DNA of 63,666 nt, the filler included. It is 7 parts of 7 records of this genome, joined end to end, with 100 filler letters (N's around TTAATTAATTAA, not from the genome) between each part and the next. Parts side by side here need not be neighbours in the genome. Positions count along the whole stretch, not along the records: positions 58,411 to 63,666 come from SRR2962707_3006; 6 more parts are not named here. One strand, 5' to 3'. The stretch's first letter is position 1. Every line of letters starts with the position of its first letter. Positions 7,036-63,014 of the stretch are shown here, one piece after another. Under the pieces are notes generated by a model. It saw only the letters and a list, made by a program, of their open reading frames with translations. It searched no databases and was not told where the DNA came from. A program made the translations under genes and the position numbers.

Positions 7036-7135
7036 NNNNNNNNNNNNNNNNNNNNNNNNNNNNNNNNNNNNNNNNNNNNTTAATTAATTAANNNNNNNNN
7101 NNNNNNNNNNNNNNNNNNNNNNNNNNNNNNNNNNN
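7036..7135. other. Artificial contig linker
   Basis: N44-TTAATTAATTAA-N44, giving stops in all six frames. Confidence 0.99.
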
Positions 7136-9392: not shown

Positions 9393-12300
9393 CTGGACAC
9401 AACGCACGACCAATACAACAGTACAGTTTGTTCAGCTGTGTGTGTATGCGAGTTTGGCAAAAGCAGCGTAAGCTCAGCAGCACACACAAACCTTCTGCGA
9501 GAATGCACCGACACTGACATCTTCTGGGAAAAGTGCTGCTGGGCGGGACACCAGAGCTCTGTTATCCTCTTCGACTAAGACCGTGGACTTGTGCGTCTGC
9601 ATTTGCACGCGGGTCAACCGGGGTTGCCCAGGATCTGCGCCGGCGTCGGTGAAAATGGCGCGCTCTGGGATCAACCCGCTGCTGTCGCGCTCCCCAGCTG
9701 ACGGTTCGGGCATGTCAGATTTCTGCCCGCTGTCGCCTCCCGCGTTATGCGTCGTCCCACCCGCCCCTTCTCCGTTCACTTGTTCCTGGCCTTCGTCGCC
9801 GCGTGTGCGGTTGGTCGCGTGCTCGATTCCAAAGCTGATGATTCGCGGTGCGGCCAACGGGTTCGCCGGTCCGCTTCCACCGCCCGTTTTGGCAAGCCAG
9901 GAAATGTCTGGCTGCAACTCACGTGATAGGTCTTTGTTCTCTGCAAGCTCGCGCTCCAAAAGCTGGCGACGCTCGTTCTGCAGTTTTCTTTTGGCCCGCA
10001 CATTCTTAAAAAACTCCCCGTCGTCCTCGACATCGTCGGTGCGAATCGTCAGCGTGGGGCCGCCCAGGCGAGCACTGCGCATTAAATCGGCTGCAGGGAG
10101 CGGTGCATCTGTCACAAGCTCCTCGGCGCGCCCTGGGATGCTCTCGGCCATTGTTAGTGCCTCACTTGCGCCACTGCGCTTGTGGAAGCGCGGCGGTAGG
10201 AACCAGAGGTGTCCGTCACTCCCGTGCAGCACTGCCCACGGATTCGAGTCTTCAAGCAACTTGCTCTGCAGCACACCCAGCAGTTTGTGCATGACTGCCG
10301 TATTCTTCACGCTGCTGGGGAGCACGGCGTTCAACATGGCCTCCAGCACCGGTGCCAACTGAAGCCTGTTGTCGGCGTTGCCAAGTTCGCCATCGCACAT
10401 GCCTTCCAACATGCTTCGGGCCACATAAACAACAGGACGGGCATCGACTAAAGTCGAGAATGCCAGAAGCATTGTTGGCGATGACTCCAGTGCTGCCTTC
10501 GCTCCCGCAGGGTGCACCTTGTAGACCTGCCGAATGCTGTCGCAGAGCTGCACTTTTAAACACCGTAATCGCGTGATTGTCGGAAAAATGCGACCCGACC
10601 CATGCTCGGAGTTCTCCCCACGGTCGTTGTTTGAAGGCTGGGAAGTTGTGTCGGCCTCTGTCCGAATGCTTTGCAGTACATCGTGCTCTACGCCCTTGCT
10701 CAGCCGGTGTTGCAGTGCTACTTTGAAGAGGTCCATGAGCTCTTCCAGCTGCGGCATACCTGCATCCTCTCGTTGGGTTGCGGAGTCGCCATCCTCTCGC
10801 GGGTCCTGCACGGGCTCGGTAACGTCTTCCCAGGATGGTTCTTCAGTGATGAAACGTACCTCGAGCAGGTCAAAATGCTTTGACAGGCATGGGTGCAAGA
10901 AAAGTACTTCTTGCACCAACGAGAACCGCTCACAAATGGCTCTGCCAACAACGTCTTCGGGGCCGGCAAAACCATACACCCACTGAGATTGCTGGGATGC
11001 CGTAGCCAACTTCACAAAGGTGCCACGGGTGGTGGGCAGGAAAAGGTCATGCACTTCGCTCTGCTGCATGGCCAGGGCAACGGTTTTGCCGCGGAACCTC
11101 GTTGTGGAATCGCCGCTGGATGCATGCTTGTCTGGCTGCCCCGCGGAAATGACTTGTCCCAGAGCAACATCCAAGAGTTTGCAATAGCACTTGAAGTTAT
11201 GCACTCCTTTTTCACGATCAGGAAGTGCGAAGTCCGCGTACTTGAAGTGTGGGTTGCTCTTCGGGCGCCCCGGGAGCTGCGCAAACATCTGCATGTCCAG
11301 GGCGACGGCGTCCAAGCACTGCTTCTGGGCACCAGCGGGCGGACTCTTCGGCACCCCGAGGAAATACACAAAGAAATTCAGAACTGGGTCAAGGGGTGAG
11401 CGACCGTACACCCTCGACAACGTGAACCGAGGGATGGCCGCGGTAGCCATTGCGGCACTGCTCAGGCGGCAGTCCCCAAAGATGCGAAGCAGCCCTGACG
11501 GGTCGCTTAGCACGCAGTCATTAATGCGCTCGAACCGACCTTTGATCACCTGCTCAGGATATATCTCGCCTTCGCGGGCTGCGGGCACCCATACCCTTGG
11601 AGGCAGGCGGTGCGTCGTTGGGTCCTCCTTGCAAAAGAAGTTGTAGAGATGCCAAGCCTGTTTCGAATCGTGTGACATTGTTTCAGCAAATTCCGCAAAT
11701 CGCTTCATGACTGCCCGCATGTGGGATCCGGAGGTGTTAAACGACGTGAGTCGTGAGTTGCGCGCCCATTCACCCACAAGGTCCATGAGAATCTTGGTGT
11801 CGATGTTCTGTGTTACGTTCAGCAGCTGCGCCATGGTGTCATCGCACTTGATATCTGGGTGCGTGTATCTACATTGCATGCCGCGCACAGCCGGGTGGAC
11901 GTTGCTTGGTGAGTGGGGTTTCTTCACATGATTGCTCTTGGCATCATGAACGAAAGGTAATTTGCGTAAAACAAATTTGTGCATGGAAACGTACCGAACA
12001 AACGCAACTTGTCTGCCTGCGTGCGTCGAGACCGCGGTCAGCTTTTGCACTTCTTGAGAATGCTTGTCAAATAGGGACGCCGGCCGGCACAGCGGGAGCA
12101 GCGCGTGGTCACCCTCGCGCCCTTCTGCTGGTCCGCGCCGCAAGTCCTGGGCGGGAAGCCAGTACATGTGACGAAGCTGCTGCACCGCCAGAGATGGAAT
12201 GGCTTTTGACAATGACTGCGCGCGAGCGCCGCTGATCTTCATCAAAGCTTTACCAGATTGCGGCTGGATAGTACAGTTTGCGTGTTGAGCCAGGTTGCTT

Positions 12301-15300
12301 TGCTCAAATAGATGCTGCAAGGCGGGATACAACTGCTTTGAGATGAAGTCAAAGACGCTCCGCTCCACATACACCGCATCGTCAAACTCGCACAACTCTG
12401 GTATAAAGAAAGCCGGGCCCTGACGACGATTCTCCTGCAGCAACGGCTGCGTCCCACTGCCGTCCTCACCCTCCTCTTGCAATGCGCCCACGCCGTAGCA
12501 GGTCTGGTAGTACTCAAGCAGTGACTGCTCAGACCCGGTCTTCGTCTTCAGCATCTCCGTACGGGGTGATTTGTCAAACGCCACGTCGGCCACTAGCACC
12601 ACTGGACGTGTTGCGTCATGCAATGGCACAACAATCCGCCCGCGCAATTCCTGCTGCAGCACCATGTCCCAAGCAGGGTACCCTGTTTCGGCCAGTCGCT
12701 GGGTGGGAAGCCGGCGAACGCGCTGCATCCAGTCCCAGACGTTCTCTTTCGGCAGCGGCTTCCATGGCTTTGGTCCCATCGGGTCCGGTGACAACACCAA
12801 GTACTGTGCCGAGGATTTCCCGACTGTGACCACCCGTCGCCGTCTCCACGCACGCTGCAGAGCCGTCGCGGCTGGGGCGGTTTCGAGATGCGGGGCACAT
12901 GCCTGCCCCACGATGTTGATCAGCAGTTTAAAGAGCTCGTTGCCTCGGAACTCCCATTGCTTCCACAGCTTGTATCCCACGGGAGGAGAACTGCACAAGT
13001 CGGGCCAGTGGCACTCCTCCACGGCAGTCAGCAGCGCGTATGGTCCAGGTACCTGCGACGTTGAGCAGGCAGGGTAGTGCGATCATCGTTGCTTCCTTTG
13101 GTATCATTCACGTCAGGGTCACACGTACTATCAAACGCACCTGTGCCGACACCAAGGTTTCGTCAGCGCACTCTAACTCGAAGGTGTGAGCGACACCAAA
13201 CTTTTTCAGCAAGTTTGCCGCCTGATGGGTGCCCAAAAAGTCGCGGTGGACGGTCATCCACTCAAAGTTAAGGTTCGAGTCTGCAACAGTCAACCATGAA
13301 AGTGTTACCGATGCAGGCGATTGTCTCATTCGCAGGCACCACGGTGGCAAAAAATCGCGCACGTGAACGCACTCGAACTTTCTGACCACCACAACACATT
13401 GGCGTCGAAATGAAAGCCCCGAGGTGGTTGAGCCTTTTGCGTTTTTTTACGATTTGCTGCAACGAAAACACACGATGCAGACGGAAAACTCAACCACAAT
13501 GCACACGCATGCCCGTGCACTCACGTTGCGGCCTGCACCAACTGGGGTCACAGCGCAGCACCGCTTTTGGACAAACACGTCGCACGCACTAACCTGGACC
13601 GGGGAAATGCAGGACGAGCTCAGCTCCGTGGGAGAGCGGAAACAGCTTTCTGTCATGTGTCGTGACGACAGGACCGTCACCCACAGCAAAAGCTTTGTCG
13701 ATGCTACGCTTCACGCACTTGTCGGTACAGTAGTGCCGACTCACAAACTCAAAGCAGTCTGTCAAAAGGACATGCGCGTTTTTCTGTGGCACCTTTCCTT
13801 TGTCAGCCCGTATGCTCCGATACAATGGCAAAATCATACTCTCGACGACATGCCCAGCTGTCAAGTTCCGAATTTTGAGCTTTTTCGTCAATACGTCCAT
13901 GTATGCCTGCGCCAGTCAGACAACGACACTTCAAATCAGGCACACGTTTGCCATTCATGGCATGACTGGCATTGACTCAGCAACCAGACGCACAGCATTT
14001 TCGTCCCGGTGCAGATCTGGGACGCTGGCATCAACAAGTAAGAGCGACTTGGCAAAGCGGAAACCCCGCAAGCTGTGTGCCAGCCCGGCGCTGGAGGGAT
14101 GAGTAGGAGCCATCGAGGATGCTGATGTGCGGAACAAATTTGAGCTCGCTGGTTCAGCAAAGACAAGCTTGCCCTCGAATCCCGTTGCAGGCAGCCAGGC
14201 CAGCTTGCGCAGGCTTTCATACTTTTCTTTTGCCATCGCCAAAGTTGTGGTGCCGGCCCCGACCATGTCGCAATAAAGAAGCACCATCCTCACGTACCAC
14301 GCGCGCGGTTGGTTGCCCCGCCTCACCGCAACGCCAAGAACTGCCAGCACATGCGCGTCACCAATGCACTCAATGTCCAGCTCACTGAGCACCTGCGGTC
14401 GCACCTCCGACTCAAACGTCGGATCTAGCACGCGTTTCTTGCAGGCCTCCACGATGTCACCCGGACTCATGAGGGCAATGACACGATCGTAGAAATCCGG
14501 GGGAACGCGAAGCGTAGCAGCGGGAACCTCGAACTCAGCTGCACGTTGTTCACCGTCAGGTGGTGGCCACGATGCGGTCAGCACACCACATACAGCCTCT
14601 GTCTGGAGAGAGTGCAGCACTTCGCGCGCAATAGGCTTGAGCATGTCGATCACGTCGGGCACCATCGGGACCATGGAGACAAACTGCGCCATCGAAACGC
14701 CACATTTCCCCGTGCTAATAACACGATGCGCTTGGCAGAACAACCGTGGGACGCGAGAAAGTAGCCACACGTTCCAATCGTCTCTGTCCATGATATCTTC
14801 GCGAGTGGCGTTGGTCACCCAGTCCGCTTGCAGAACAAACCGAAGGCCGCACTTCTTCACGGGCAAAAACGCAAACAAAAACTGCTGCTGGGAGCTGGCG
14901 CCGCCTCGATGCGCATTGTGACCAGCATTCGATTCAAGGCATGGAAAAGCGAGCACCAGCGATGTATTGTTGACGTGGTGGCCAATTCGCATAAGCGTCG
15001 GCGATAATTTTTGCTCCACGACCAGCCAATGCTTGTCACGCACGGTAGTACTAACAGAACCGCCAGGGCCATCGGGCAGCGGCTTGGACACGTGCGCAGT
15101 GGTGCGCATCTTGTACCACACAACATCGTTGTCTGCCGACAGTTCCACAGGCGTGCATTGTTGTGACTTCGTCAAACGCTTCACCTCACCGGTGACTTGG
15201 TTGTCCAAAATCACTGTTTGTAACGTGCGCAAGAAAAGCATTGAGTCGTCGATGCCCATGAGCTGTTGATACATTTGCCGATAGCGTTTCTTCACGTCTA

Positions 15301-20229: not shown

Positions 20230-20329
20230 NNNNNNNNNNNNNNNNNNNNNNNNNNNNNNNNNNNNNNNNNNNNTTAATTAATTAANNNNNNNNNNNNNNN
20301 NNNNNNNNNNNNNNNNNNNNNNNNNNNNN
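20230..20329. other. Artificial contig linker
   Basis: N44-TTAATTAATTAA-N44. Confidence 0.99.
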
Positions 20330-26063: not shown

Positions 26064-26163
26064 NNNNNNNNNNNNNNNNNNNNNNNNNNNNNNNNNNNNN
26101 NNNNNNNTTAATTAATTAANNNNNNNNNNNNNNNNNNNNNNNNNNNNNNNNNNNNNNNNNNNN
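26064..26163. other. Artificial contig linker
   Basis: N44-TTAATTAATTAA-N44. Confidence 0.99.
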
Positions 26164-35891: not shown

Positions 35892-36070
35892 TGCCGCGGC
35901 CTCTTACACTTGTAACATCATGATATAATAATATGAATTGGTAGCAACATGTAATGAGTTATACAATTTTTTAGCCTAGAGGGGTTCCACCACTCACAGC
36001 TTTATGATTCAACCATTATTACAATTGGTTGCGGTTGGACTGCATCAACAATGGGCTTAGGACAAGAGTT

Positions 36071-38653
36071 ATGGCTGAACAAAATCAACCCATGAGCAAA
36101 ATTGAGCCTTTGGTGTATCGCAAGAGCCGGCCCACAGCGGTTGGTAAGCTCATCATATTTGGGTTTGTCGCGCTGGTAATCGCTGTATTTTTGTTTCTAT
36201 TCCGCGATTTGGTTGATGATGGCTTTCTTCTAGCGCTGCTTGGCATTTTGGCCATGATTGGCGTATTTTTCCTGTTCTCGATGGTTATTGGCTTTGTAGA
36301 GTTTGGCATTGCGCGCAAGCGCGATGATATTGGCGGCGCGTTTCTCAATAGTCTGTCCGATGGTATCTGCATTACGGATGATCAAAATAACATTGTTTAC
36401 GCCAATAAAGCCTATGGTGATCTGACCGGCGCTACTCAAATTATTGATTTGCAACCGCTGGAAAACGTGCTGTCCCATCATGAAGATGCTGCCAATGCGC
36501 TTTATCGTCTGGCTAATAATGCCCGCCAAATGAAGGATTGTGACGAGGAATTTAGGCTGCCTGCTGCGCTTAATAAGCCAGATGCGGATCGTCCATTTTG
36601 GTATCGCGGTTCTGTGCATGCGATGCGCGGGCCTGCAGGCGACACGATGAAGGTGTGGCGTCTATCGGATATTTCAAGCGAGCGGGACGCGCAGGAGCAA
36701 TATTTCCTTGAGCTGCAAAAAGCGATTGACCACCTTGATCGCGCGCCGGTTGGCTTCTTTTCATCAGATTCAGATAACCGCATTCAATATATCAATGCGA
36801 CATTGGCTGAATGGCTCGGAATTGATCTGACCTCGTTTAACGCGGGTAATTTGAGCATTGATGATCTGGTTATAAATGATGGTGCGCGTGTGCTCAATCA
36901 TGTTCGCGCAGAGCCGGGTAATGTGCGCACCGTGACTGTCGATCTTGATATGGCGAAGGGAACGGGCGAAAATCTGCCGGTTCAGCTTATTCACCGTGTG
37001 CAAACCCATTCAGACGGCGCTACCGGCCAGTCTCGGACAATCGTTATCAACCGCACGGACGGCGATGATGCGAGCCAAGATTTGCGCAGTGCAGAAGTTC
37101 GCTTTACGCGGTTCTTCAATTCAACTCCGATGGCGATTGCAGCTGTGGGCCGCGATGGGCGTATTTTGCGTACCAATGCTTCATTTAAAAGCCTTTTCGG
37201 CTCGCAGGTTCAGTCTGATGAATTGCACCGCAAGGTTAAGTTTGAAACGCTTATCCATGAGCGTGACCGCGCGCGTTTTGAAAAGACATTTGAGGCAGCA
37301 CGGCAAAATCAGGCCAATATTGAACCATTTGATACGGTTGTTACCGGCGCCAATGAAGTTGATGAAAAGCACATTCGAGTTTATGTGAATGCGGTTGCCA
37401 GCGTTGCCGGTCTTGAAAATGATGAGGGCGCTGAAGAGGCGGCTATCATTTACACGATGGATGTGACCGAACAAAAAGCGCTTGAAGGACAAATGGCGCA
37501 AAGCCAGAAAATGCAGGCTGTTGGCCAGCTTGCTGGCGGTATTGCGCATGACTTTAACAATGTGCTGACCGCTATCATCATGGCGTCTGATCTGCTGCTT
37601 ACAAATCATCGCCCGTCTGACCCGTCATTCCCTGATATTATGAATATCAAGCAAAATGCGAACCGCGCTGCATCCTTGGTGCGCCAGTTATTGGCCTTCT
37701 CGCGCCGTCAAACACTGCGTCCGGAAATCTTGAATCTCACAGATGTTTTGGCTGATTTACGGATGCTGCTTGCGCGATTGATTGGCAATAATATCAATCT
37801 GACGATTGAGCATGGCCGCGATGTTTGGCCGGTTAAAGTGGACCTTGGCCAGTTCGAGCAGGTTATTGTCAATCTGACCGTTAATGCCCGCGATGCGATG
37901 CCTAATGGCGGCGATCTGACAATCCGTTCGCGCAATATTACAACGGCTGAAACGAGCGAACTTAATTATCGCGGATTAGAAGCCAATGATTATGTGATGA
38001 TCGATGTTACCGATAATGGCACGGGCATCGAAGCCGAAGTCTTGCAGAAAATCTTTGAACCTTTCTTCACCACCAAGGAAGTCGGCAAGGGCACCGGACT
38101 TGGCCTGTCGATGGTCTATGGTATCATCAAACAGACCGGCGGGTATATCTTTGCTGATTCAAAACTGGGTGATGGTACGACGTTCCATATTCTGTTGCCG
38201 CGTCATGAAATCAATGAAGAAGAAATGGCGGCACAGCGCAAGATTGAAGCGCCAAGCGAGAAGAAGCAGGATCTTTCTGGCTCTGCAACCGTGCTGCTCG
38301 TCGAAGACGAAGATGCGGTGCGTATGGGCGGCGTTCGTGCGCTGACATCGCGTGGCTATACGGTTCTTGAAGCCTCAAGCGGTGTTGAAGCCATGGAAAT
38401 CATGGATGAAGTCAATGGTGCGGTGGATATCGTTGTCTCTGACGTTGTGATGCCGGAGATGGACGGGCCGTCATTGCTGCGCGAAATTCGCAAAGAATAT
38501 CCCGATATTAAGTTCATTTTCGTGTCGGGTTACGCTGAAGAAGCGTTCGCGAAGAACTTGCCAGAAGGCGCTCAGTTTGGCTTCCTGCCCAAACCGTTCT
38601 CGCTAAAACAGTTAGCGACAACGGTTAAAGAGACCTTGGAGGGGAAGATCTAG
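36071..38653 (+). CDS. cckA: Cell-cycle hybrid histidine kinase CckA
   Basis: Two TMs, PAS domains, [35 protein letters not shown], receiver domain [11 protein letters not shown]. Confidence 0.92.
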
Positions 38654-40445: not shown

Positions 40446-40545
40446 NNNNNNNNNNNNNNNNNNNNNNNNNNNNNNNNNNNNNNNNNNNNTTAATTAATTA
40501 ANNNNNNNNNNNNNNNNNNNNNNNNNNNNNNNNNNNNNNNNNNNN
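40446..40545. other. Artificial contig linker
   Basis: N44-TTAATTAATTAA-N44. Confidence 0.99.
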
Positions 40546-46470: not shown

Positions 46471-46570
46471 NNNNNNNNNNNNNNNNNNNNNNNNNNNNNN
46501 NNNNNNNNNNNNNNTTAATTAATTAANNNNNNNNNNNNNNNNNNNNNNNNNNNNNNNNNNNNNNNNNNNN
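46471..46570. other. Artificial contig linker
   Basis: N44-TTAATTAATTAA-N44, preceded by a poly-T run. Confidence 0.99.
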
Positions 46571-48430: not shown

Positions 48431-51055
48431 TTAATGACTGTAACGTACGCCAAAATAGAAGCGTCGACCATTTTGGTAAATACCTGTTGGCGCATATTCA
48501 TTGCGCTCATACAGGTAAGTGATTTCATCGGTGAGATTGATTGCTTCAATTACAAAGTCAAGCTTGTCAGATAGTTTGAAGGTAATGCTGCCGTCAAGTT
48601 GTCCAAAGTCATCCATCATGGTCTCTCCTACACCGGTGGCAAAATGAGTACGATAGTTGTAGGCCAAACGCGAACTTAACCAGTCATTTTCATAGTAACT
48701 GGTTAAATTTATTGTGTGTTTTGAAGTGCCAGGTACATAGTTATCACGCCCTGAAATGCTATCAGTGCGATCGCCATCGACAAAGGTATAGTTAGTGATC
48801 AAACCAAAACCATATATAAGCTCTTGTTGATAGCCAATTTCTACCCCTCTGATAGTACCGCCGCTGCCATTGATTGGCCTGTCAATGGTCATATCAATGC
48901 CTTCGTGTCGCTCAATAGTGCGTTTAAATTCGACAAAGGATTCAACGTCTTTGTTAAACAATGCCACAGAGAGCAGCGCGGCATCATCAAAGTACCATTC
49001 AACGCTTAGATCAAATTGATTAGCGCGATAAGGGTCTAAGTCTGGGTTGCCACCTTGGCCTTGCGCTTGGGTGACATTGTAATTAGTTGATGGCATTAAA
49101 TGATTGTACTGCGGACGAGACATAACCCGCGCGGCACTGACTCGGGCAATTAAGTCCTCACTTAAATCAATGCTGATATTGGCACTTGGCAATATATCGA
49201 CATAGTTTTTGTTATGCTGCTGCCAGACAAAGCTTTGTTGTTGCTCAACCGGTGAGCCAATACGTTTATAAGCACCGGCGTCTTGCTCGGTATTAACAAC
49301 GCGTACCCCCAAGTTTGCTCGGTAATCATTGCCATCAAGCATTAATTTAACATAACCTGCAGTTGTGCGTTCTTGAATATCAAAACGGCTGGCTTTTTCT
49401 TCCTGTTGTACAAAGTCGATCGTTTTAAAATCTGTAGATAATGCGTTGATATCGACATAACTGTAATTTTTGAGAGTGTGTTGATCGCCAATTTCGGATA
49501 AAAATCCACTGGGGAAAGTTGCCGGGTAGTCGGCTAAGGTCCAATCAAGTTGTTGGGCTATGCCATCAAATGCGCCGTTAAATGAACGATAACGAATAAA
49601 ATCACGTTGATGATCGCGGTACTTTGCGCCAACTTTTATAGCGCTGATAATAGAATGATCAATTGCGCGTTCAAAATCACCTTGCAAATAGAACTCTTGA
49701 TCGTTTGAATCTTGGCTGTCGTTACGTGCTTCTGTAAGTTGCCAAGCCTGTCCATCAAGCGGGGATACATCATAGTTGGCGATTATATTTTTACGCTCAG
49801 TGGTATCAACCGTATAGGCGGTATTGGCTGAAAATTGTGAGGTGTGATCTTGCTTGGAACCGCCACCGCCTTTGGTCAAACCAATTTGGTATTGGTTTTG
49901 CCAAAGATGTGCTTGCTGACTAACAATTAAATGCACACTGCTGGTACTTATTTCGGATTCTCGCCAAATAGCTTCCATGGCAGTACTAAATGGTAAATTT
50001 TGTGCGTTTTGTTCTGGGACTGTTGAGTAGCGGGCAAAGGCGAGGGTGTTATCAATAATCTTCGCATCGCTGATATGACCGCCACGGGCAAACACACTAC
50101 TGGGCTGCCATAAAAAGTTTTGGTTACTGTTATCAGCGTTAAGTACTGAATACAAAGTATTCAGTTGAATATTCCAATCTAAATTAGGTTGGTATTCAAA
50201 ATTTGCGGTGGCACTGGTTAACACTCGCTGTTGCTGGAATATTGCTGAGCCACCACCACCTGGTGTCCAAACGTTTTTAATATCGCCAGTGTCGCTGTCT
50301 GTCGCTGATAAACTGCCATCGTTGTTTTGTTGAAAGTTTTGTTCATGCCAACCCCATGACTCAAGCCCATCACGACGTAATGAGCGTTGATTACGGGTAA
50401 AGGTAACTAATGCGCCAACGTCTTTGTCTAGGTTAGTCCAGTTATAAAATACGGCCAACTGTGGGTCAAATTCACCTGATAAATCATTGTATTGCACTTT
50501 TGCATTAGTAACAAACTGATTACTTTGCGTATGCAAAGGTCGTTGCGTTTTAATATTAACAGAGCCGCCTAATGAGCCTTCGTTGTGATCTGCTTGCGGG
50601 GTTTTATATACTTCTAAAGAAGATACTAGATCAGCGGGTAGCAATGTGTAATTAAAACCACGATTAGGTTGGGTTGAGATCCACCAATCCGCAGAGGCAA
50701 TTGCTTGCCCATTTAAAAAAGTGCGATTTTGTTCTGGCGTGGTGCCGCGCACACCCACACGTTCCCCTTCCCCTTGGGCACGCGAGAGTGAAATGCCGGT
50801 GATGCGTTGCAGTGCTTCTGCGACATTTTTATCAGGGAATTTACCGATATCTTGCGCGGTGATTGCTTCTATGATTGACTGGCTGTCGCGCTTATCACGT
50901 AGTGATTTGATAGCGCTGTCATGAAAGCCCCTAATTTGAATTGTTTCTAATTGGTTTTGGTCTGTATCCGCGGGTGTTTTAGCTCTTGAGTAAAGCGAAT
51001 TGAATGCGCTGGCAATGAGCATTATGTTAACAAGTTTTTTTATTTTTATTGTCAT
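48431..51055 (-). CDS. TonB-dependent receptor
   Basis: LETIQIRG TonB box, DIGKFPDKNVAEALQRITG, GNPDLDPYRA, NLTDE, GRRFYFGVRYSH. Confidence 0.95.
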   Translation of the reverse strand: MTIKIKKLVNIMLIASAFNSLYSRAKTPADTDQNQLETIQIRGFHDSAIKSLRDKRDSQSIIEAITAQDIGKFPDKNVAEALQRITGISLSRAQGEGERVGVRGTTPEQNRTFLNGQAIASADWWISTQPNRGFNYTLLPADLVSSLEVYKTPQADHNEGSLGGSVNIKTQRPLHTQSNQFVTNAKVQYNDLSGEFDPQLAVFYNWTNLDKDVGALVTFTRNQRSLRRDGLESWGWHEQNFQQNNDGSLSATDSDTGDIKNVWTPGGGGSAIFQQQRVLTSATANFEYQPNLDWNIQLNTLYSVLNADNSNQNFLWQPSSVFARGGHISDAKIIDNTLAFARYSTVPEQNAQNLPFSTAMEAIWRESEISTSSVHLIVSQQAHLWQNQYQIGLTKGGGGSKQDHTSQFSANTAYTVDTTERKNIIANYDVSPLDGQAWQLTEARNDSQDSNDQEFYLQGDFERAIDHSIISAIKVGAKYRDHQRDFIRYRSFNGAFDGIAQQLDWTLADYPATFPSGFLSEIGDQHTLKNYSYVDINALSTDFKTIDFVQQEEKASRFDIQERTTAGYVKLMLDGNDYRANLGVRVVNTEQDAGAYKRIGSPVEQQQSFVWQQHNKNYVDILPSANISIDLSEDLIARVSAARVMSRPQYNHLMPSTNYNVTQAQGQGGNPDLDPYRANQFDLSVEWYFDDAALLSVALFNKDVESFVEFKRTIERHEGIDMTIDRPINGSGGTIRGVEIGYQQELIYGFGLITNYTFVDGDRTDSISGRDNYVPGTSKHTINLTSYYENDWLSSRLAYNYRTHFATGVGETMMDDFGQLDGSITFKLSDKLDFVIEAINLTDEITYLYERNEYAPTGIYQNGRRFYFGVRYSH

Positions 51056-51211
51056 ACTCAACCCAACTAGAACAACATGAGAAAAACTAGCAGTGATAAC
51101 TACCTATAAAATAAGAACACACAAATGGAGTGTGCTACTATGTACCGTATTTGCTTATAGTACGCTTTCTTGACTAATTTAACCATAGATTAACGTGTGT
51201 AAAAACAAACG

Positions 51212-54996: not shown

Positions 54997-57555
54997 TTAA
55001 AAGTTAAAGCGCACTCCGGCAACAAAGCGACGACCATCGGCATATACACCCGTTAAGGCTTGTTGCACACCTTCTTCTTGGTAACTAAAAGTGTGTTCGT
55101 CTGTAAGGTTTATTGCCTCTAAAACAAGTGCTAAATTATCGTTTACGTTGTAGGTAAAGTTTGCATCTACTTGACCATAATCATCAACATAACCATGACC
55201 TTGGCCTGAGTTGTAACCTGTACGGAAGTTGTAGGAGATACGTGTGCTAAATGCATCTGTTTCATAGTAAGTGCTTAAATTGACAGTGTGTTCCGAGTTA
55301 CCAGGAATAATCGTATCATTACCATCGGCATCCTTTGCTTCACCATCTACAAAGGTGTAGTTAGCATTAAAACCAAAACCTTCAAGTATCTCTTGCTGAT
55401 AACCTAGCTCTAAACCTTGGATACGACCAGAACGGCCATTTGTAGGGCGGTTTACTAAGATTTCTACACCTTCGTGAATTTCTAGGTTAGGTGTTACATC
55501 TAAGAAAGATTGAATATCTTTATAAAATACAACCGCTGAGAATAAACCTGCATCACTGAAATACCATTCAACCCCAGTATCAAACTGCGTTGCACGGTAT
55601 GGGTCAATATCCGGGTTACCGCCACTGCCTGTTTGTGTTTCAAGGTTATAAGAGGTTGAAGGTGTCATCGATGCATAATCTGGACGTGACATTACACGGG
55701 CTGCACTGAAACGCAGTAGTACATCGTCATCTAAATCAATTGCTAGATTGATACTAGGTAAAATATCAAAATAGTCGCGGTCATCATTGGTCCATACTTC
55801 AGAGCCACTTTCACCGACATAAGCTGCCGTTGATTGCTGAGTTTGTACTAAACGAACCCCTAAATTACCGCGCATACCTTCTACATCGATATCAGCTTTG
55901 ATATAACCGGCGGTGATTTTTTCTTCAACTTCAAAAGTACTGGCCTTGAGTACACGGTAGTTCCAATCAAGGGTATCGCCTTCGCGGCGTACTTTATCTG
56001 AATCGGTGATTGCGTAATCACGTAACGTACCGTCTGAGCCTAGCCCTGATAAGTAATCAGATGGCATTGATAGTGAATAGTCAGCTAAATTCCAGCCTAA
56101 ATCTGTGCGGTTATCTGTGGTGTTTTTGGTGTTAAAACGTGAATGATCACGATACTTTAAACCGAATTTCACTTTGCTAAAGACAGCGATGTCAACTGGG
56201 CGCGTAAAATCAACTTGTAGGTAAGTTTCGTCATCTTTGGCATCATTACTGTCGTAACGTAAAAAGCCTAAATCCCAATTTTTACCATCTGCTGGATCTG
56301 CGCCATAAGTAGTACGTACATCTTCAACAGCAGATGTATCAAAGCTATGTACATAATTGCCTTCCCAGCCAACGCTGCGATCAGCTTGCGAACCACCACT
56401 GCCTTCGGTATAACCAACATGCACACTGGTCAGCCATAACTCACCTTGATAATCGGCTTTTAAATCGTACGATTTGGTTTTGATTTCAGAATTTCGTACC
56501 TTGGTTTCATCTAGAATGTTATTCGCAGTTGGTGATAACCCTAAAGTCCCGCCCACTAGCATAGTACCAACTTGATCGTTCTCTATTAACGTGACGTCAG
56601 TATATTGTGAGCCACCATAACCTGGCAGCCATAGGAAGTTTTGATTTTCATTATTCGCTTCAAGAGTAGAATCAAGGGCGTTGAAGGTTAAATCGAGTTG
56701 CTCGGTAGGGCGGTACTGTACGGCTAAATTGATACCGGTACGAATACGTTCTTGTAAGAACATCGCTGAGCCACCACCGCCTGGACTGTATACATCTTTA
56801 TATTCAGTGCCGTCTTCTAAGGTGATATCACGTTTAGCCCAGCTCCATGACTCTATCCCATCGCGGCGTAGGTTACGCTGTTGGCGAACCAATGAAATAA
56901 GCGCACCGAAGGTTTCATCTTCAGTTTTAAAGTTATACATAGCAGAGAGTTGCGGGTCGGTTTCACCCGAAATTTCACTGTGCTGGGCAAGCACTGAGCC
57001 CGCAAATTTATTTGCTTCTAAATCAAGCGGTTTACGCGTTCTTACGATAACCGTACCACCAATAGAGCCTTCATCAATATCTGCTTCCGGTGACTTGTAT
57101 ACCTCTAACCCGGATACAATTTCAGATGGCAACATTGTATAGTTAAAACCACGGCTTGCCGCAGAGTTCGTCCACCAGTCGGCAGAGCCGACAGCTTGAC
57201 CATTTAATAGTGTACGGTTTTGGCTCTCAGCGGTTCCACGGATACTTACGCGTTCACCTTCACCAAAGTTACGGCTAATTGATACACCGGTGATACGTTG
57301 TAATGATTCTGCGACGTTTTGATCGGGGAATTTACCGATATCCTCAGCAGTTACTGCATCCACAATCGCATTTGAATAGCGCTTAGTGTTCAGTGATTTA
57401 ACAACGCTGCCACGAATACCGCGAACTTGAATCACTTCAACTTCGTCTGTGCTTTTCAGCTCAGCACTGTGCGCTACCATAGGTAAGCTCAATGCCGATG
57501 TAACTAGTGATGCGCTCACTGCTAAATACAGTTTATTTATTTTTACTTTTAACAT
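54997..57555 (-). CDS. TonB-dependent receptor, paralog of 48431-51055
   Basis: VEVIQVRG, DIGKFPDQNVAESLQRITG, SADWW, RRDGIESW, PGGGGSA, terminal F; start set at MLKVK. Confidence 0.95.
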   Translation of the reverse strand: MLKVKINKLYLAVSASLVTSALSLPMVAHSAELKSTDEVEVIQVRGIRGSVVKSLNTKRYSNAIVDAVTAEDIGKFPDQNVAESLQRITGVSISRNFGEGERVSIRGTAESQNRTLLNGQAVGSADWWTNSAASRGFNYTMLPSEIVSGLEVYKSPEADIDEGSIGGTVIVRTRKPLDLEANKFAGSVLAQHSEISGETDPQLSAMYNFKTEDETFGALISLVRQQRNLRRDGIESWSWAKRDITLEDGTEYKDVYSPGGGGSAMFLQERIRTGINLAVQYRPTEQLDLTFNALDSTLEANNENQNFLWLPGYGGSQYTDVTLIENDQVGTMLVGGTLGLSPTANNILDETKVRNSEIKTKSYDLKADYQGELWLTSVHVGYTEGSGGSQADRSVGWEGNYVHSFDTSAVEDVRTTYGADPADGKNWDLGFLRYDSNDAKDDETYLQVDFTRPVDIAVFSKVKFGLKYRDHSRFNTKNTTDNRTDLGWNLADYSLSMPSDYLSGLGSDGTLRDYAITDSDKVRREGDTLDWNYRVLKASTFEVEEKITAGYIKADIDVEGMRGNLGVRLVQTQQSTAAYVGESGSEVWTNDDRDYFDILPSINLAIDLDDDVLLRFSAARVMSRPDYASMTPSTSYNLETQTGSGGNPDIDPYRATQFDTGVEWYFSDAGLFSAVVFYKDIQSFLDVTPNLEIHEGVEILVNRPTNGRSGRIQGLELGYQQEILEGFGFNANYTFVDGEAKDADGNDTIIPGNSEHTVNLSTYYETDAFSTRISYNFRTGYNSGQGHGYVDDYGQVDANFTYNVNDNLALVLEAINLTDEHTFSYQEEGVQQALTGVYADGRRFVAGVRFNF

Positions 57556-57957
57556 CCTCGATTCCCCTTGAATCAAAACTTTATTTTGTTGTGTCAAATG
57601 AGTCCTACCATTCGTACATATAGTCATTTTTAATCGTCGTACTTGGTAAGACCGTTGTCTAAAAACAAACATTGGCGACTAAGTGATTAACTTATTATGG
57701 CCACTTCGCATGCAAAAATAACCGCAGCTGTTTTGTTTGTGGCTCTATTAAACGCCTTTTAAAAAATAGAGTCTTGAATCTGAGTGAATAGTTATGAAAG
57801 TGATTAATTTGAAAGAAAATAATTATTTTTCTATTTAAAATTGTTTAATATCAACTGTTTTATTTTTGTCAGTTCTTGTTTTTTGTTTAATAAGTTAAGT
57901 TTACTTAATGAGTTTTACGTTTTTAATTGTTGTAATTCACAACTAGTGGATTAAAAA

Positions 57958-58013
57958 GTGAAAGGTAAAAAGGTAAAAAGGTAAAAAGGTAAAAGGTGAA
58001 AGGTGAAAGGTGA
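57958..58013. repeat. 7-8 bp tandem repeat (GTRAAA(A)G)n
   Basis: gtgaaag gtaaaaag gtaaaaag gtaaaaag gtaaaag gtgaaag gtgaaag gtga. Confidence 0.85.
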
Positions 58014-58114
58014 CTGGGAAATAATCAATGGCGAATACAGACCTCCCGATGGGAAAAGTAACTTCGCTAGGCTCTTTTCAATTAAGAGCCTAGAAAATTA
58101 GGTGTTTTATTGTG

Positions 58115-58310: not shown

Positions 58311-58410
58311 NNNNNNNNNNNNNNNNNNNNNNNNNNNNNNNNNNNNNNNNNNNNTTAATTAATTAANNNNNNNNNNNNNNNNNNNNNNNNNNNNNNNNNN
58401 NNNNNNNNNN
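58311..58410. other. Artificial contig linker
   Basis: N44-TTAATTAATTAA-N44. Confidence 0.99.
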
Positions 58411-61400
58411 CCAAACTTGACAGAGCGGAATCCCTCCATATTTTCAGCTGACGTTCCACAAAGCGTCCACGAGTCGTTCGGCCCAAAGCGGTACTCAATG
58501 CAGTTGGAAACACTGGTGTCCTCGGCCATAATTAGATCCTGGACAGTCAGAATGGAGTACTGGTCTTCAGCCAAACCGGGCGAGGCGGATGCGATCGCAG
58601 TCTCGCCGTTAGGAATCACCAAGACCAACTCCTCGAGCTCCTCCTCGTCCTCGTTCATGCACACTACCGCCACAGTAAACTGTCCTGGTTCTTCGTCAGC
58701 AGCGGAGAGGTACAACGCTGAACGTTCGTCCGAAATGTGGAAGATTTTTTGAGGAATGAAGTTGACATCCTCGACCTCAAAAGTTGTTGCCATGATAGCC
58801 TTGCCTAATCCAGAATCGTTTGGCAAGGGAGTTGCCGTGGGCTCAGATGCCTTCACCGCACCGCCGCCACTACCAGAAGCAGGGGCGTCTAAGAACAGCT
58901 GGATTCGCGGAAGGTCGTACACGACAGCGCTATCTGCTGCGCTCGCGAAATCTCCTTCCAGCACTATGTAGTTGTGGGGCCAGACGAATTCCTCTTTGGC
59001 CTCTGCAGAGTTAGCGTGTTCAGCAACGCTAGCTCGCAGAGCCGCTTCAAGCAGCGCGCGTTCACTCTCAGGGTTGGCGTGTTCCTCAGCAAATTTGCCA
59101 GCAGCAGTGTTGAATTGCTCAGTGTCCTCGTTGTAAAGTTTGCCAGCAGAAGAATTCAGAGAATCGCCAGGCGACTGGTTGGCAAGCAGCTCAAGCACCT
59201 GCACCAGCATGAAGCGAATGTTCTTCTTTGGGGACCAATCGGCACCGTAAAGGAGGTTCGGGCAAGGAGAACCTGCAGTTGTGACGTTGCAGTGAAAAAT
59301 CTTCGTCTTGAAGGTCAAAACGGGTGGGCCCAACGGGTACTCCTTCGGGATGGCGATTGAGACGCGGAAGAGGCCCTTTTCGTAGGGCGAGCCTGCAGGG
59401 CCTTGGATCAACAGCTGCGGATTGAAGATATCGGCGTCGTTGACGAACAGCTCCACACCGTCAATGGGGCTTGCCAACAAGTCCTTAATCTCATTGCGCA
59501 CACGCTTGATGGTCTTCACACTATGACCGGTGGGTTGCTTGCCAGACGTCTTGGCATCCTTGAACGCCTGGAATAACGTTGGCTCTTTGGCGCCGGCTCC
59601 AGATGCTTGCCACAGGCACTGCCCTGCCGAGTAAAACTCCTTGGCGACCACATCAGGAAATAAGCCTTTAATGTGCGTGGCCAGGCCCGAGCCAGTCATT
59701 GAGCCTCCATTCTGCACCTTGATGGTGTCCCACACGCTGAACCCCTCGGCGGGGGCAACTTTGTGCAGAACGGTCACGCCGGTGGCAGGGTCTTCGATAA
59801 CATTGCGCTCCTTGAACACCACAACATCGGGCAAGTCTTCCTGGACAAAGTTGCACGTGGACAAGTCCATCGTGAGGCCCTTGTGTAGCTTGGTTTCCAC
59901 AGACAACAGGTGCTTGGCGATTTCGATCATCTGAGCTCCACAGATCGACGCAGTCGCCGTCGCGATGGCAGCGAGGATGTTGCCGGCAGTCACGCGCACG
60001 TAATCTGACGTTGATTCGTCAATGTAGTAGTTGTGGGAGCGTTCGTTGCAGGCCGCGGTAATCCAGTCAATGTGATGGTTGTCGTCCTCGTCCTTCTCAA
60101 ACTCCATTTCCTGGATGGTCTCGCCTGTCGAGGGGATGGCATCGAGCTTTTCCAACAGAGACTCGATGCTCTCATCGGCCTCCTTTTCGGCAGTCTCTGG
60201 TGTCCATTCGGTCTCAGGAATATCCTTGGCAATGGTGGCCACTTCATCGGCACTCGGGCGTTGGAGGCCCAAGATATCGGACATGATACAAGCTGTGTGA
60301 AACACGAAATCTGTGTACCGCTTGGACGCATGGTCATGTGCAGTGCGCGGGAAGCGTTTGCGGCCCCGCCAGAATGGGCCCAGGTCCACCCCCGTCTCCT
60401 TTTCAATGTTTGGCGGCCCCCCTGGTTGGCCAAGGTCTCGCGGGAAGTCGTGCGTCAACTTCCGAATTGCAGTATTGAAGAAGCGATCATATGCTTCAGC
60501 ACCTACGCGCACCACGGCGGCCACTTGCTCGGATCGGTCTTCCAACTTCGCGATCTTCGAGTACTCAGTCCACGCCAGCGTATTGCGCAGCATGTCCTTC
60601 TTTTCTTCCTCACTTGCGCTGGAAATATTGCGCAGGAAAGCGGCGGAGTCTTTTTGCAGCTTGTTGTAGTATCCTGCGCCAACCTCAAACAAGTCTCGGA
60701 ACATATTCTTTGCCCAGCCAACACAGTGGGACGCCAAAAAAGGAAAGTTGGTCAAAGTGCACATGGCAATCGGCCCTGTGTTGGTGTCGGTGTCGTGGTA
60801 GTGGTCGGACTTTCCAGGAAGGTGCACCGAAAGACTGGCTTGAGTGGAGAGAGTACCCGACTCAAAAAGCGGGGTGGAGTGCAACAGGCATTTGGAGTCC
60901 GTGTAGGTTCGCGCCTTAACGTTGTCCAGGGCGTTGAGTACGAAGTCCAGCCCATCCCAGAATTCATCAGTGAACTCGGTTTCGGTGTTCGGCTCAACGC
61001 GGGTTTCGTGTACACGCAGACCACGGCGAAGATCGGGGTTCATCACGCATGCCACGTCGCCTGCGGATGCTGATTTCAACTTCTTCACATGATGACGGCG
61101 GAACAAGAACTGGCGACTCAAGTTCGACAGCTCAATAACATCATCGTCAGTGATGTGCACTTCTCCGGATGATCCCTCGGGGCCACACCCAGCCCCCATC
61201 AGCGCAAGATTCTTCAGGTACTCGCAGCCCAGGGCGCCGCAGCCAACCTGGAAAACTTTGAGGTTGAACACCTTGTCCTGGAAACTGCTGCCGAAGAGTG
61301 CGATCTGGTGGTCATAGCGAGACGGCGAAGCTGCGTCGAGGGTCATGTCCTCGGCGACTGACGTTGGAACAATTTCCAAAGCTTCGTAGTGCAGCCACTG

Positions 61401-62618
61401 ACGCAGGGGCGTGTACTTGCCGGTGTGCTTCATTGCTTCCTGGGCGACGATACCGCCAAGGAACGCGCAGAGCCCATTGAATCGGGTACGTGCGAACAAG
61501 GCCACCTTTGTTACCATGTCGCTCGCCACCTCATTTCCCTCGCCAAATTCTTTTGGCGCAAACTCGCCAACGCAACGCTCAGCGTCCTTCGCACTGTGCA
61601 AAGCAGGGAGTTCGCCATTGTTGGCGTCCTGGAATGCCAGAAGAGTCCGGCGCGTTGCATGGAGGTTCTCGAACCCCATCCCGAACATGTAGTTCTTGGC
61701 AAAGTCAATATGGTTCTCACAGAATACTGGCGCCTTGAGCGACTCACTCAGCGGAAGGTAGTCGAAGAATTCGGGGACTTTGACAGTCTTGACAATGCCA
61801 CCCGCAGAGTACGGCGTCAGCCCCTTCACAAACGTACCGAAAGATTCTGCGTCGCCCTGCTCTTCCCACGGGGCATCAGGGGACTTGCGGGTGAAGCTCT
61901 TTTGAACGATCAAGCGGCGCTTGTTCTTCGGGTCCACGTTGACCTGCACCATTGCGCCGTTGATTCCATCAAGACCTTCGACATTGGATATGGAGATGTG
62001 GTCGCCATTGTCCAAGAGTTTGCGCTCATCGGAATCCAAAACGATTTCGACAAGACCTGCATCTGAGACATACAGCGACTCGATCGGGAAGTTGCGATCG
62101 GGCGCCCCGGTTTTGTCAAAAACCTCGTGCTGTTTACCAAAGTCGGTAAATACAGTGCCGAAGAGACCAGTTGCAGTGGCGTAGATGAAAGTCACACCAT
62201 TCGCATGGCACCAGTCGCTGTGAGCAATGAGCTCGGATGGAGCGCGGTCGTCAGTGAAGACAACCACGTTGAACTTGCCCAGAACTTCAGGGGTGACAGC
62301 ACCAGTCAGGACTGCGAAGTTGACGTTTGGGTTGATGGACTGCAACTCTGTTGAGCAAGCTTCGGCTCGCGATTTCTTGCCAATGTCCTCGGCTGTCAAG
62401 TAAAAGTTCACGCCAAGATCAGCGTGAGAAACGATGGTGTCGTCGTGCACGGCAACAGACCCAGGGCCTGTCAACAGAAGGTTCTTGGCGGTCTCAATGC
62501 CGAGGCCATCAAGGCCAAAGATTGCCATTTTCAACTGTTTCAGTTTGCCAACCATCTTGGCACCATATGCAGCCTGCATACGGCTCAGGTCTTCTTTGAT
62601 TGGCTGTTTCTCCGCCAT
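58411..62618 (-). CDS. UBA1-like ubiquitin-activating enzyme E1 with an inserted E2 (UBC) domain and an extra C-terminal domain; 3'-truncated, no intron evident
   Basis: GLGIETAKNLLL, GGIVAQEAMK...KYTPLRQW, SRYDHQIALFG, VGCGALGCE, SNLSRQFLFR, ALDNVKAR, catalytic AMCTLTNFP, FEKDEDDNHHID, AIATATA; then UBC GPAGSPYEKGLF...YPLGPP...KIFHCNV...PC...WSP. Confidence 0.92.
59075..59520 (-). other. UBC/E2 domain inside the E1 ORF
   Basis: KRVRNEIKDL helix 1, HCN motif, Cys codon at 59262-59264, WSP, LNSSAGKLY. Confidence 0.9.
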
Positions 62619-63014
62619 GATTTCAACGAAGTGTGTTACTGTTCTGAAGCGCGAGCCCAAAAAAAAAAAAAAAAAAAAAGTTTGGTGTACGTGCGGAAAA
62701 GAAAAGAAGAAAAATCGATGCTCCTCTCACTGCACCAAACCAAACAGAAAAGAAAAGGAACAAAAAAGCAACGAAGCTTTCAAAGCGCTGCTCGCATCCG
62801 CGCACGCCACGCGTTTCACTCACGCCCAAGCTGACGGGCACGTTTCCAGCGCCATCCCAACACCCAGTTCAAAATGACCGCTTCGCCACGAACGAAACGT
62901 GCAGTTGTTTACTCAGGAGCAGCAGCAGCAGCAGCATTAACACCAGCAGTTGGACCCGCAAGAGACGGAGGGAGGGCGCAGTTTGGAAGACTGTGCGAGA
63001 GTCTGGACAGACGC

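Follow-up and report, generated by a model that had tools for sequence, protein, structure and literature searches.

In canonical E1 enzymes, the ubiquitin-fold domain (UFD) recruits an E2 enzyme via the first helix of the latter and, by swinging, carries it toward the cysteine of the E1. Judging from structure entry titles, structural work on the transient E1-to-E2 transthiolation used 'trapped' E1-E2 complexes. The part of a 2025 E1 review available to us names only prokaryotic Cap2 as an E1-E2 fusion, describes it as ATG7-like and as conjugating a substrate other than a ubiquitin-like modifier (Ubl), and treats non-canonical substrates of eukaryotic E1s as an open possibility (PMC12355090). 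Here we analysed a stretch of DNA of 63,666 nucleotides (nt), hereafter the window, composed of seven contigs. The last contig (58411-63666) carries a gene whose product combines a UBA1-type E1, an E2 of the ubiquitin-conjugating (UBC) fold nested in the same chain, and a conserved C-terminal domain (CTD). This protein is a member of a genuine eukaryotic family of E1-E2 fusions, as yet uncharacterised, which, as far as seen, is limited to poorly studied marine protists.

An earlier note on this DNA, made from the sequence alone, had raised two objections to its own proposal, namely that the architecture might already be characterised and that similar fusions might already be annotated in other protists. 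Neither was borne out in the searches made. Our literature search, which covered titles and the beginnings of abstracts and left subscription journals largely uncovered (older domain-architecture surveys may mention such a protein), showed no eukaryotic UBA1-UBC fusion among the papers listed, the one E1-E2 fusion encountered being Cap2 of bacteria. Of the papers listed in one of the searches, nearly all concern Cap2 of the bacterial defence system CBASS or other phage defence, and a few deal with viral E1-E2 glycoproteins or unrelated subjects. The accessible portion of PMC4327156 does not mention an E1-E2 fusion, and that of PMC11354881 does not mention a eukaryotic one. The relatives of the protein bear at most generic database names, such as 'ubiquitin-protein ligase' and 'hypothetical protein'.

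E1 modules, nested E2 and divided UFD

The gene is a single open frame on the minus strand that begins with an ATG at 62618 and is still open where the contig stops, at 58411. We treat it as a partial coding sequence (58411..62618, open reading frame (ORF) and translation), truncated at its 3' end where the contig stops. P0002, a full-length protein of 1555 amino acids (aa) with the same sequence, is encoded on a 1.35-Mb contig and has 153 residues beyond the window. As the ORF runs into the contig end and the spacer at 58411, the window carries 1402 of the 1555 codons (residues 1-1402). The earlier note had placed the end of the ORF at 58890, a position that turned out to be the end of the UFD, with the frame continuing open to 58411. 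Upstream of the gene, a run of 21 A residues is seen on the plus strand at 62660-62680, about 40 nt from the start codon at 62618, and near 62627-62647 contigs of the runs X1, X6 and X9 stop or diverge.

The presence of UBA1-type E1 modules in one ORF, as claimed in the earlier note, was confirmed by Pfam and by comparison with solved structures. ThiF (PF00899) matched in two stretches (2.7e-64), UBA_E1_SCCH (PF10585) at residues 629-869 (3.6e-34) and E1_4HB at 1.3e-6 (28.7 bits against a cutoff of 25); E1_FCCH was found under its cutoff (3.9e-5; 24.1 bits, cutoff 29.5). The best sequence match among solved structures was yeast Uba1 (2.4e-130, residues 12-903), followed by human UBA6 (4e-105) and UBA7 (1.5e-89). 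The Pfam values, with that of UQ_con below, lie far beyond chance. The N-terminal half of the E1 (residues 1-434; 61317..62618, minus strand) comprises the inactive adenylation repeat, the first catalytic cysteine half (FCCH) domain (195-280) and the four-helix bundle (4HB; 282-350), as assigned from Pfam and from the alignment with Uba1, which starts at residue 12. The active adenylation domain (residues 435-918; 59865..61316, minus strand) coincides with the best ThiF stretch and has the second catalytic cysteine half (SCCH) domain (60012..60734, minus strand) inserted within it. The active ThiF repeat holds a glycine-rich ATP motif, GCGALGCE (residues 459-466), and a motif search placed its first seven residues, GCGALGC (459-465), at 61224-61244. 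The codon of the E1 catalytic Cys620, in the context IAMCTL, lies at 60759..60761 (minus strand) and aligns with PLCTLRSFP of yeast Uba1. The motifs and codons given in the earlier note (GCGALGC, both cysteine codons, FSVWDTIKV, and YIVLEGDF...YDLPRIQLFL) were all recovered at the same coordinates.

The nested UBC domain occupies about residues 1030-1181 (59076..59531, minus strand). UQ_con (PF00179) matched residues 1039-1173 at 8.8e-31 (106.8 bits against a cutoff of 27). The closest counterpart was UBE2S in both sequence and fold: the sequence search against solved structures gave 2e-27 over residues 1037-1193, and the modelled insert superposed on 1zdn_A with Z 22.1 and a root-mean-square deviation (rmsd) of 1.5 over 151 aligned residues at 37% identity. 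The YP..PP and WSP motifs are retained in the sequence. By motif search and comparison with relatives, we located the codon of the E2 catalytic Cys1119 (SPCPNLL) at 59262..59264 and an HCN motif comprising His1109 and Asn1111 at 59286-59294, all on the minus strand. His1109, Asn1111 and Cys1119 were unchanged in 11 of 11 aligned relatives, and HxN...PC was found in all 16 family members. With these Pfam and PDB matches, and with both cysteines kept in all relatives covering them, the proposal of a catalytically intact UBC in the ORF is supported.

The canonical E2 motif is HPN, and what the nested E2 has is a variant of it, as the middle proline is replaced by Cys in 13, Val in two and Met in one of the 16 family members. 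The E2 cysteine itself sits in an odd P-C-P context in 14 of the 16. These features would suit an insert that is not a working E2, being instead a regulatory or autoinhibitory plug that masks the docking surface of the UFD, or a binding module resembling ubiquitin E2 variants (UEV), so that the protein would be a specialised E1 only. We regard this as very unlikely. Inactive UEV-type domains typically lack the catalytic cysteine, and here all 16 members have both the cysteine and HxN, with His, Asn and Cys invariant wherever aligned and with a fold match to active E2s that is very close.

Among the four Pfam families named in the earlier note for mapping the domains, PF00899, PF10585 and PF00179 were found, and PF09358 (E1_UFD) had no match to the fusion protein. 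The UFD was assigned on the basis of (i) a structure model, (ii) alignment with the C-termini of canonical E1s, and (iii) weak E1_UFD matches to the N-terminal half in two distant relatives. An AlphaFold model of residues 907-1250, built with an 11-row alignment, had a mean predicted local distance difference test score (pLDDT) of 74.5 and displayed the order strand-helix-strand-strand-helix, a full UBC, a linker helix and two strands. When the model was compared with 48,161 PDB representatives, the UFD of human UBA1 (9mc4_A 948-1058) matched with Z 11.1 and rmsd 2.8 over 100 aligned residues, the matched model range (49-338) spanning the insert. Both flanks must contribute to this match, because the piece preceding the insert has only about 70 residues against the 100 aligned. 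The N-terminal part of the UFD (about residues 958-1026; 59541..59747, minus strand), defined from the model, the fold match and the E1 alignment, consists of the strand FSVWDTIKV (residues 960-968; 59715-59741), a helix, two strands and a second helix. A helical linker from the UBC back to the UFD (residues 1183-1202; 59013..59072, minus strand; model helix 277-296 in local numbering) leads to the C-terminal part (residues 1217-1243; 58890..58970, minus strand), which supplies the final two strands, YIVLEGDF and YDLPRIQLFL.

In a MAFFT alignment of eight fusion proteins and nine non-fusion E1s, from the FEKD motif to the end, the FTVWD strand aligned upstream of the insert, and the extreme C-termini of all nine non-fusion E1s aligned with HNYIVLEGDF...LPRIQLFL downstream of it. 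Within the first strand, W963 was unchanged in 11 of 11 aligned relatives. The PF09358 matches of the two distant relatives covered only the first 32-44 profile positions, immediately upstream of the UBC. Comparison by hhalign of the family profile with that of canonical E1s covered the E1 together with the first half of the UFD (template columns 7-1008 of 1073), and yielded no second match for the short C-terminal half. The UFD is thus divided by an insert of ~190 residues, after which the chain goes on for ~310 further residues. According to the model, ~8 residues separate the UFD helix from the first E2 helix, and the return linker has ~35 residues and contains a helix. We conclude that the UBC is inserted in the UFD after its second helix and before its penultimate strand. 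The joint fold match to the human UBA1 UFD, together with the alignment of E1 C-termini, supports the earlier assignment of the two flanking segments as UFD halves, as far as a predicted structure can.

We also noticed that in P0024, P0016 and P0061 a UFD element, 'ALW...S..F' (the fourth strand plus the second helix), apparently lies downstream of the UBC and not upstream. A weak test with hidden Markov models (HMM) for the fourth strand and second helix after the UBC gave a domain E-value of 0.0095 for P0061, 1.9 for P0016 and no match for P0024. Since the element seems to follow the UBC in these proteins, the insertion point within the UFD may vary by subgroup.

Gene integrity, relatives and the C-terminal domain

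The contigs joined in the window come from several organisms and the gene stands at a contig end, a situation in which the fused ORF could be an artefact of misassembly or of read-through of neighbouring E1 and E2 genes. Independent assemblies were found to be identical or colinear with the gene and free of joints. A run belonging to a separate study contains a 4711-nt contig that matches 58412-62647 letter for letter, free of gaps, and extends ~440 nt further past the contig end of the window. A 5282-nt marine-metagenome contig is colinear at ~92% identity, with indels only in multiples of 3 nt, all in the low-complexity linker. A 977-nt contig of a 92%-identical relative, whose library is labelled 'METAGENOMIC RNA-Seq' with the type guessed, covers 58887-59863 without gaps, across the UFD-UBC junctions. 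No joints were seen in the assemblies of four runs. In addition, the 73%-identical ortholog at locus L003 is an uninterrupted ORF of 1551 aa with a stop, and uninterrupted fusion ORFs are likewise found in distant relatives. The UFD, moreover, picks up again after the UBC, which would not be expected from adjacent genes. The objection of misassembly raised in the earlier note fails because the independent contigs are colinear without joints, and both misassembly and gene read-through are effectively excluded; we assign the artefact a negligible probability. As to transcripts, P0279, derived from an MMETSP transcript, agrees exactly with the final 235 residues of the L003 ortholog ORF, and none of the sequencing runs listed as containing the stretch is recorded as RNA.

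In relatives at 92%, 73%, 65% and ~27-34% identity (the last figure for the UFD-UBC-CTD part only), the architecture is conserved together with the two catalytic cysteines and the CTD. An exhaustive HMMER search with residues 907-1402 retrieved 11,595 proteins at E <= 0.001, mostly ordinary E2s. Eight long matches among the best 150 were subjected to Pfam, and six of them had E1 domains plus UQ_con: P0020 (1664 aa), P0024 (1702 aa), P0016, P0029, P0033 and P0061. The other two were UBC proteins of unrelated kinds, which have VWA or U-box domains. One more fusion, P0160 (1617 aa), came from a search with the E1 core, in which four of the 120 matches listed had PF00179, and a metagenome scan with a narrower alignment yielded three loci. 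The E1 cysteine motif was found in nine of nine relatives covering the region and the ATP motif in six of six, and the UBC was nested in the E1 chain in every relative with upstream sequence. As the catalytic motifs are retained among relatives that are 27-34% identical over UFD-UBC-CTD, both active sites have been kept by selection.

The nearest relatives of the E1 core are eukaryotic E1s. The nearest non-fusion E1s, ~41-43% identical in the core, form a set of ~1180 aa (P0161, P0162 and P0166; the set includes matches named Amorphochlora amoebiformis and Bigelowiella natans). The E1-core tree was built from 62 rows. Five were fusions and 57 were non-fusion sequences, taken from the top of a list of 113 that could be used; P0061, P0180, P0199 and P0208 were left out, as their anchor motifs were not found. 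In this tree, P0002, P0003 and P0160 grouped as the sister of the ~1180-aa E1s with a support of 99 in the SH-like approximate likelihood ratio test (SH-aLRT), apart from the canonical UBA1 group. Four branches are long, and the join of P0020 with P0024 was flagged as possibly false. The five full-length fusions fall into two groups and not into one clade. Either the history of the modules is more complex than a single fusion, or alignment and long-branch effects are at work. The shared UBC signature and the CTD argue for common descent of the UFD-UBC-CTD module.

The position of the E1 core bears on the question of which modifier is activated. The enzyme could serve exclusively a ubiquitin-like modifier distinct from ubiquitin, forming a private E1-E2 pair as UBA6 and USE1 do for FAT10. 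The modest identity of the core to the nearest non-fusion E1s, and its grouping with ~1180-aa E1s, which also have no PF09358 match, and not with canonical UBA1, are in line with such a specialisation. We find it rather unlikely, given that the sequence is nearer to Uba1 than to UBA6 or UBA7 in the matches above, and that no candidate modifier gene adjoins the ortholog on L003.

The earlier note described a self-contained enzyme of two activities. The E1 plus E2 architecture stands, and the extent does not: past the UFD, the fusion protein and its relatives share a conserved domain of ~310 residues that the note did not mention, and 'self-contained' possibly understates the enzyme because of this third domain. 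In the window, a low-complexity linker and the first ~140 CTD residues are encoded at 58411..58889 (minus strand; CTD HMM match 1248-1402), the remainder, to residue 1555, lying beyond the contig end. A model of the full CTD reached a pLDDT of 80.3 and a predicted template modelling score (pTM) of 0.76. No Pfam family matched the CTD, VIA-align of its model against 48,161 chains gave a best Z of 5.8, which is within noise, and Foldseek gave no matches at E <= 0.001. The best match in the ESM Atlas (0.91) had just 82 of 256 features in common, with Laminin_G_3 in 16% of members, and is a weak lead.

The CTD HMM matched 22 of the 276 proteins in the comparison set, of which 20 carry the UBC signature, the exceptions being P0011 and P0012. 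The UBC is present in P0277, of which P0011 is a fragment; thus, wherever upstream sequence exists, the CTD co-occurs with the UBC except in P0012. The latter has 377 aa, comes from a 1342-bp contig, and shows a Met start, a low-complexity stretch and then only a CTD, 52% identical to that of the window, E1 and E2 both being absent. It may represent a paralog standing alone or a fragment downstream of an intron. A search for free-standing copies of the CTD yielded seven short proteins, none of them clear evidence of a free-standing family: six derive from contigs of <=2 kb or a transcript record, and the seventh, P0281 (117 aa, covering 15% of the CTD query), lies on a 706,853-bp contig. The CTD may be a new substrate-targeting or ligase-like module.

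A proposed relay along one chain

The reading that we favour, and hold to be moderately probable, is that of a three-part ubiquitylation enzyme of marine protists, in which the E1, the nested E2 and the CTD stand on one chain and the modifier is relayed from Cys620 to Cys1119. The E1 part would adenylate ubiquitin or a close ubiquitin-like modifier, and a thioester would form on Cys620. The modifier would then be handed to Cys1119 of the protein's own E2, which the ~8-residue linker would hold at the domain that recruits E2s in canonical E1s. The transfer could take place within one chain or between the chains of an oligomer. Finally, the charged E2 would modify a dedicated target, and the CTD would perhaps guide the choice of target or otherwise assist discharge. 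Transfer in cis, the modifier and the target are points that we infer, as are the dedicated pathway and the possible non-ubiquitin modifier put forward in the earlier note.

Several observations weigh against this reading. Besides the replaced proline of the HxN motif and the missing PF09358 match described above, the confidence of the UFD model is moderate (block means 55-88), and the transcript support, which comes from the 977-nt contig and P0279, is thin. The separation of the five full-length fusions in the E1-core tree also complicates a history with one simple origin, and uniting them was rejected by the approximately unbiased (AU) test (p 0.0075).

Charging of the nested E2 might instead take place in trans, the donor being a canonical UBA1 of the organism or another molecule of the fusion, and the fused E1 might also charge free E2s, with the fusion serving co-localisation or stoichiometry. 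Both active sites look, from their sequences, as if they could be competent independently, the canonical UFD fold appears to be kept in the model, and the helix-containing return linker, being long at ~35 residues, would leave the nested E2 freedom to move. On the other side of the domain, the first E2 helix comes ~8 residues past the UFD helix, a linker so short that the nested E2 sits beside the E2-recruiting domain, and the nested arrangement is kept in all relatives. We consider charging in trans distinctly unlikely.

A bolder version of the relay seems somewhat unlikely to us, and we mention it tentatively: an autonomous machine uniting E1, E2 and an 'E3', with intramolecular charging at the UFD and with the CTD as a substrate-recognition or ligase-like module, which would make it an independent eukaryotic counterpart of Cap2 on a UBA1-type scaffold. 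In that case one polypeptide would activate a modifier, carry it and deliver it to a dedicated target.

A natural enzyme whose E2 is covalently bound within the domain that recruits E2s would offer a ready-made system for studying transthiolation, and the CTD, which matches no known fold, may define a new targeting or ligase-like module.

Genomic setting and comparison with known systems

The seven contigs of the window are separated by six artificial spacers (7036-7135, 20230-20329, 26064-26163, 40446-40545, 46471-46570 and 58311-58410), each of the form N44-TTAATTAATTAA-N44. The spacer at 58311..58410 has a bacterial contig on one side and a eukaryotic contig on the other: the contig with the fusion gene has a GC content of about 50-55%, and the adjoining contig (46571-58310) one of about 41%, and the latter encodes TonB-dependent receptors (48431-51061 and 54997-57672). 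In its intergenic tail, GGTAAAAA/GGTGAAA-like units are repeated in tandem over a short stretch, 57958-58015. Elsewhere in the window we found a bacterial-type phenylalanyl-tRNA synthetase (PheRS) beta subunit (3951-6350), a hybrid histidine kinase (36029-38653) and an ORF of 1182 aa with a PAZ domain, possibly eukaryotic (9474-13022). As bacterial-type genes and a eukaryotic gene lie on different contigs, the assembly behind the window is a mixture of organisms. Rfam gave no matches over the whole window. A 4.7-Mb bacterium (G001) has 21% of the window's words in common, and the sole match of the fusion protein there is ThiF/MoeB-like.

Canonical UBA1/Uba1, as well as UBA6 and UBA7, share with the fusion the order of modules through the E1, including the adenylation repeats, FCCH, 4HB, SCCH with its cysteine, and the UFD. 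They differ in what becomes of the UFD, which in canonical UBA1 is contiguous and ends the protein; in the fusion it is interrupted by a whole E2 and followed by an extra domain of ~310 aa, giving 1555 aa against ~1000-1100 aa. The ~1180-aa E1s of Amorphochlora amoebiformis and Bigelowiella natans resemble the fusion in having no PF09358 match and in carrying a helical insertion of ~60 residues in the same UFD region. Unlike the fusion, they have neither UBC nor CTD, and they end at the last UFD strand.

The nested E2 has in common with UBE2S the UBC fold, the catalytic cysteine, both the His and the Asn in HxN, and the motifs YP..PP and WSP, and it lacks the C-terminal tail of UBE2S. In contrast to E2s of the UBC family, it is nested and not free-standing, has HCN for HPN, and shows the P-C-P context at its active site. 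UBE2O and BIRC6 are also large eukaryotic proteins with an embedded UBC that combine two steps of the cascade, and their UBC domains were among the fold matches of the model (Z 12-14). According to structure entry titles, however, these proteins couple their E2 to E3 activity or to substrate binding, and still depend on an E1 that is a protein apart (UBA1 or UBA6).

Cap2 of CBASS is alike in that an E1 and an E2-like domain share one chain for self-contained conjugation, as described in the part of the review at our disposal (PMC12355090). It is unlike the fusion in the kind of E1, that of the fusion being of the UBA1 type with FCCH, SCCH and UFD. The E1-E2 models of PADLOC matched the fusion protein only at the nucleotide-binding core of ThiF (residues 445-519, best E-value 3e-7, profile positions ~360-430 of ~600) and had no match over the nested UBC. 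A defence operon of the Cap2 type with a CD-NTase is absent at the ortholog locus L003, and the gene in the window lies on a contig of eukaryotic type. Since Cap2 is ATG7-like and the fusion UBA1-type, and since the PADLOC models recognise the ThiF core only, the two fusions are independent. If the proposed relay is true, the conjugation cascade has been collapsed onto one chain in eukaryotes too, and not in bacteria, with Cap2, alone.

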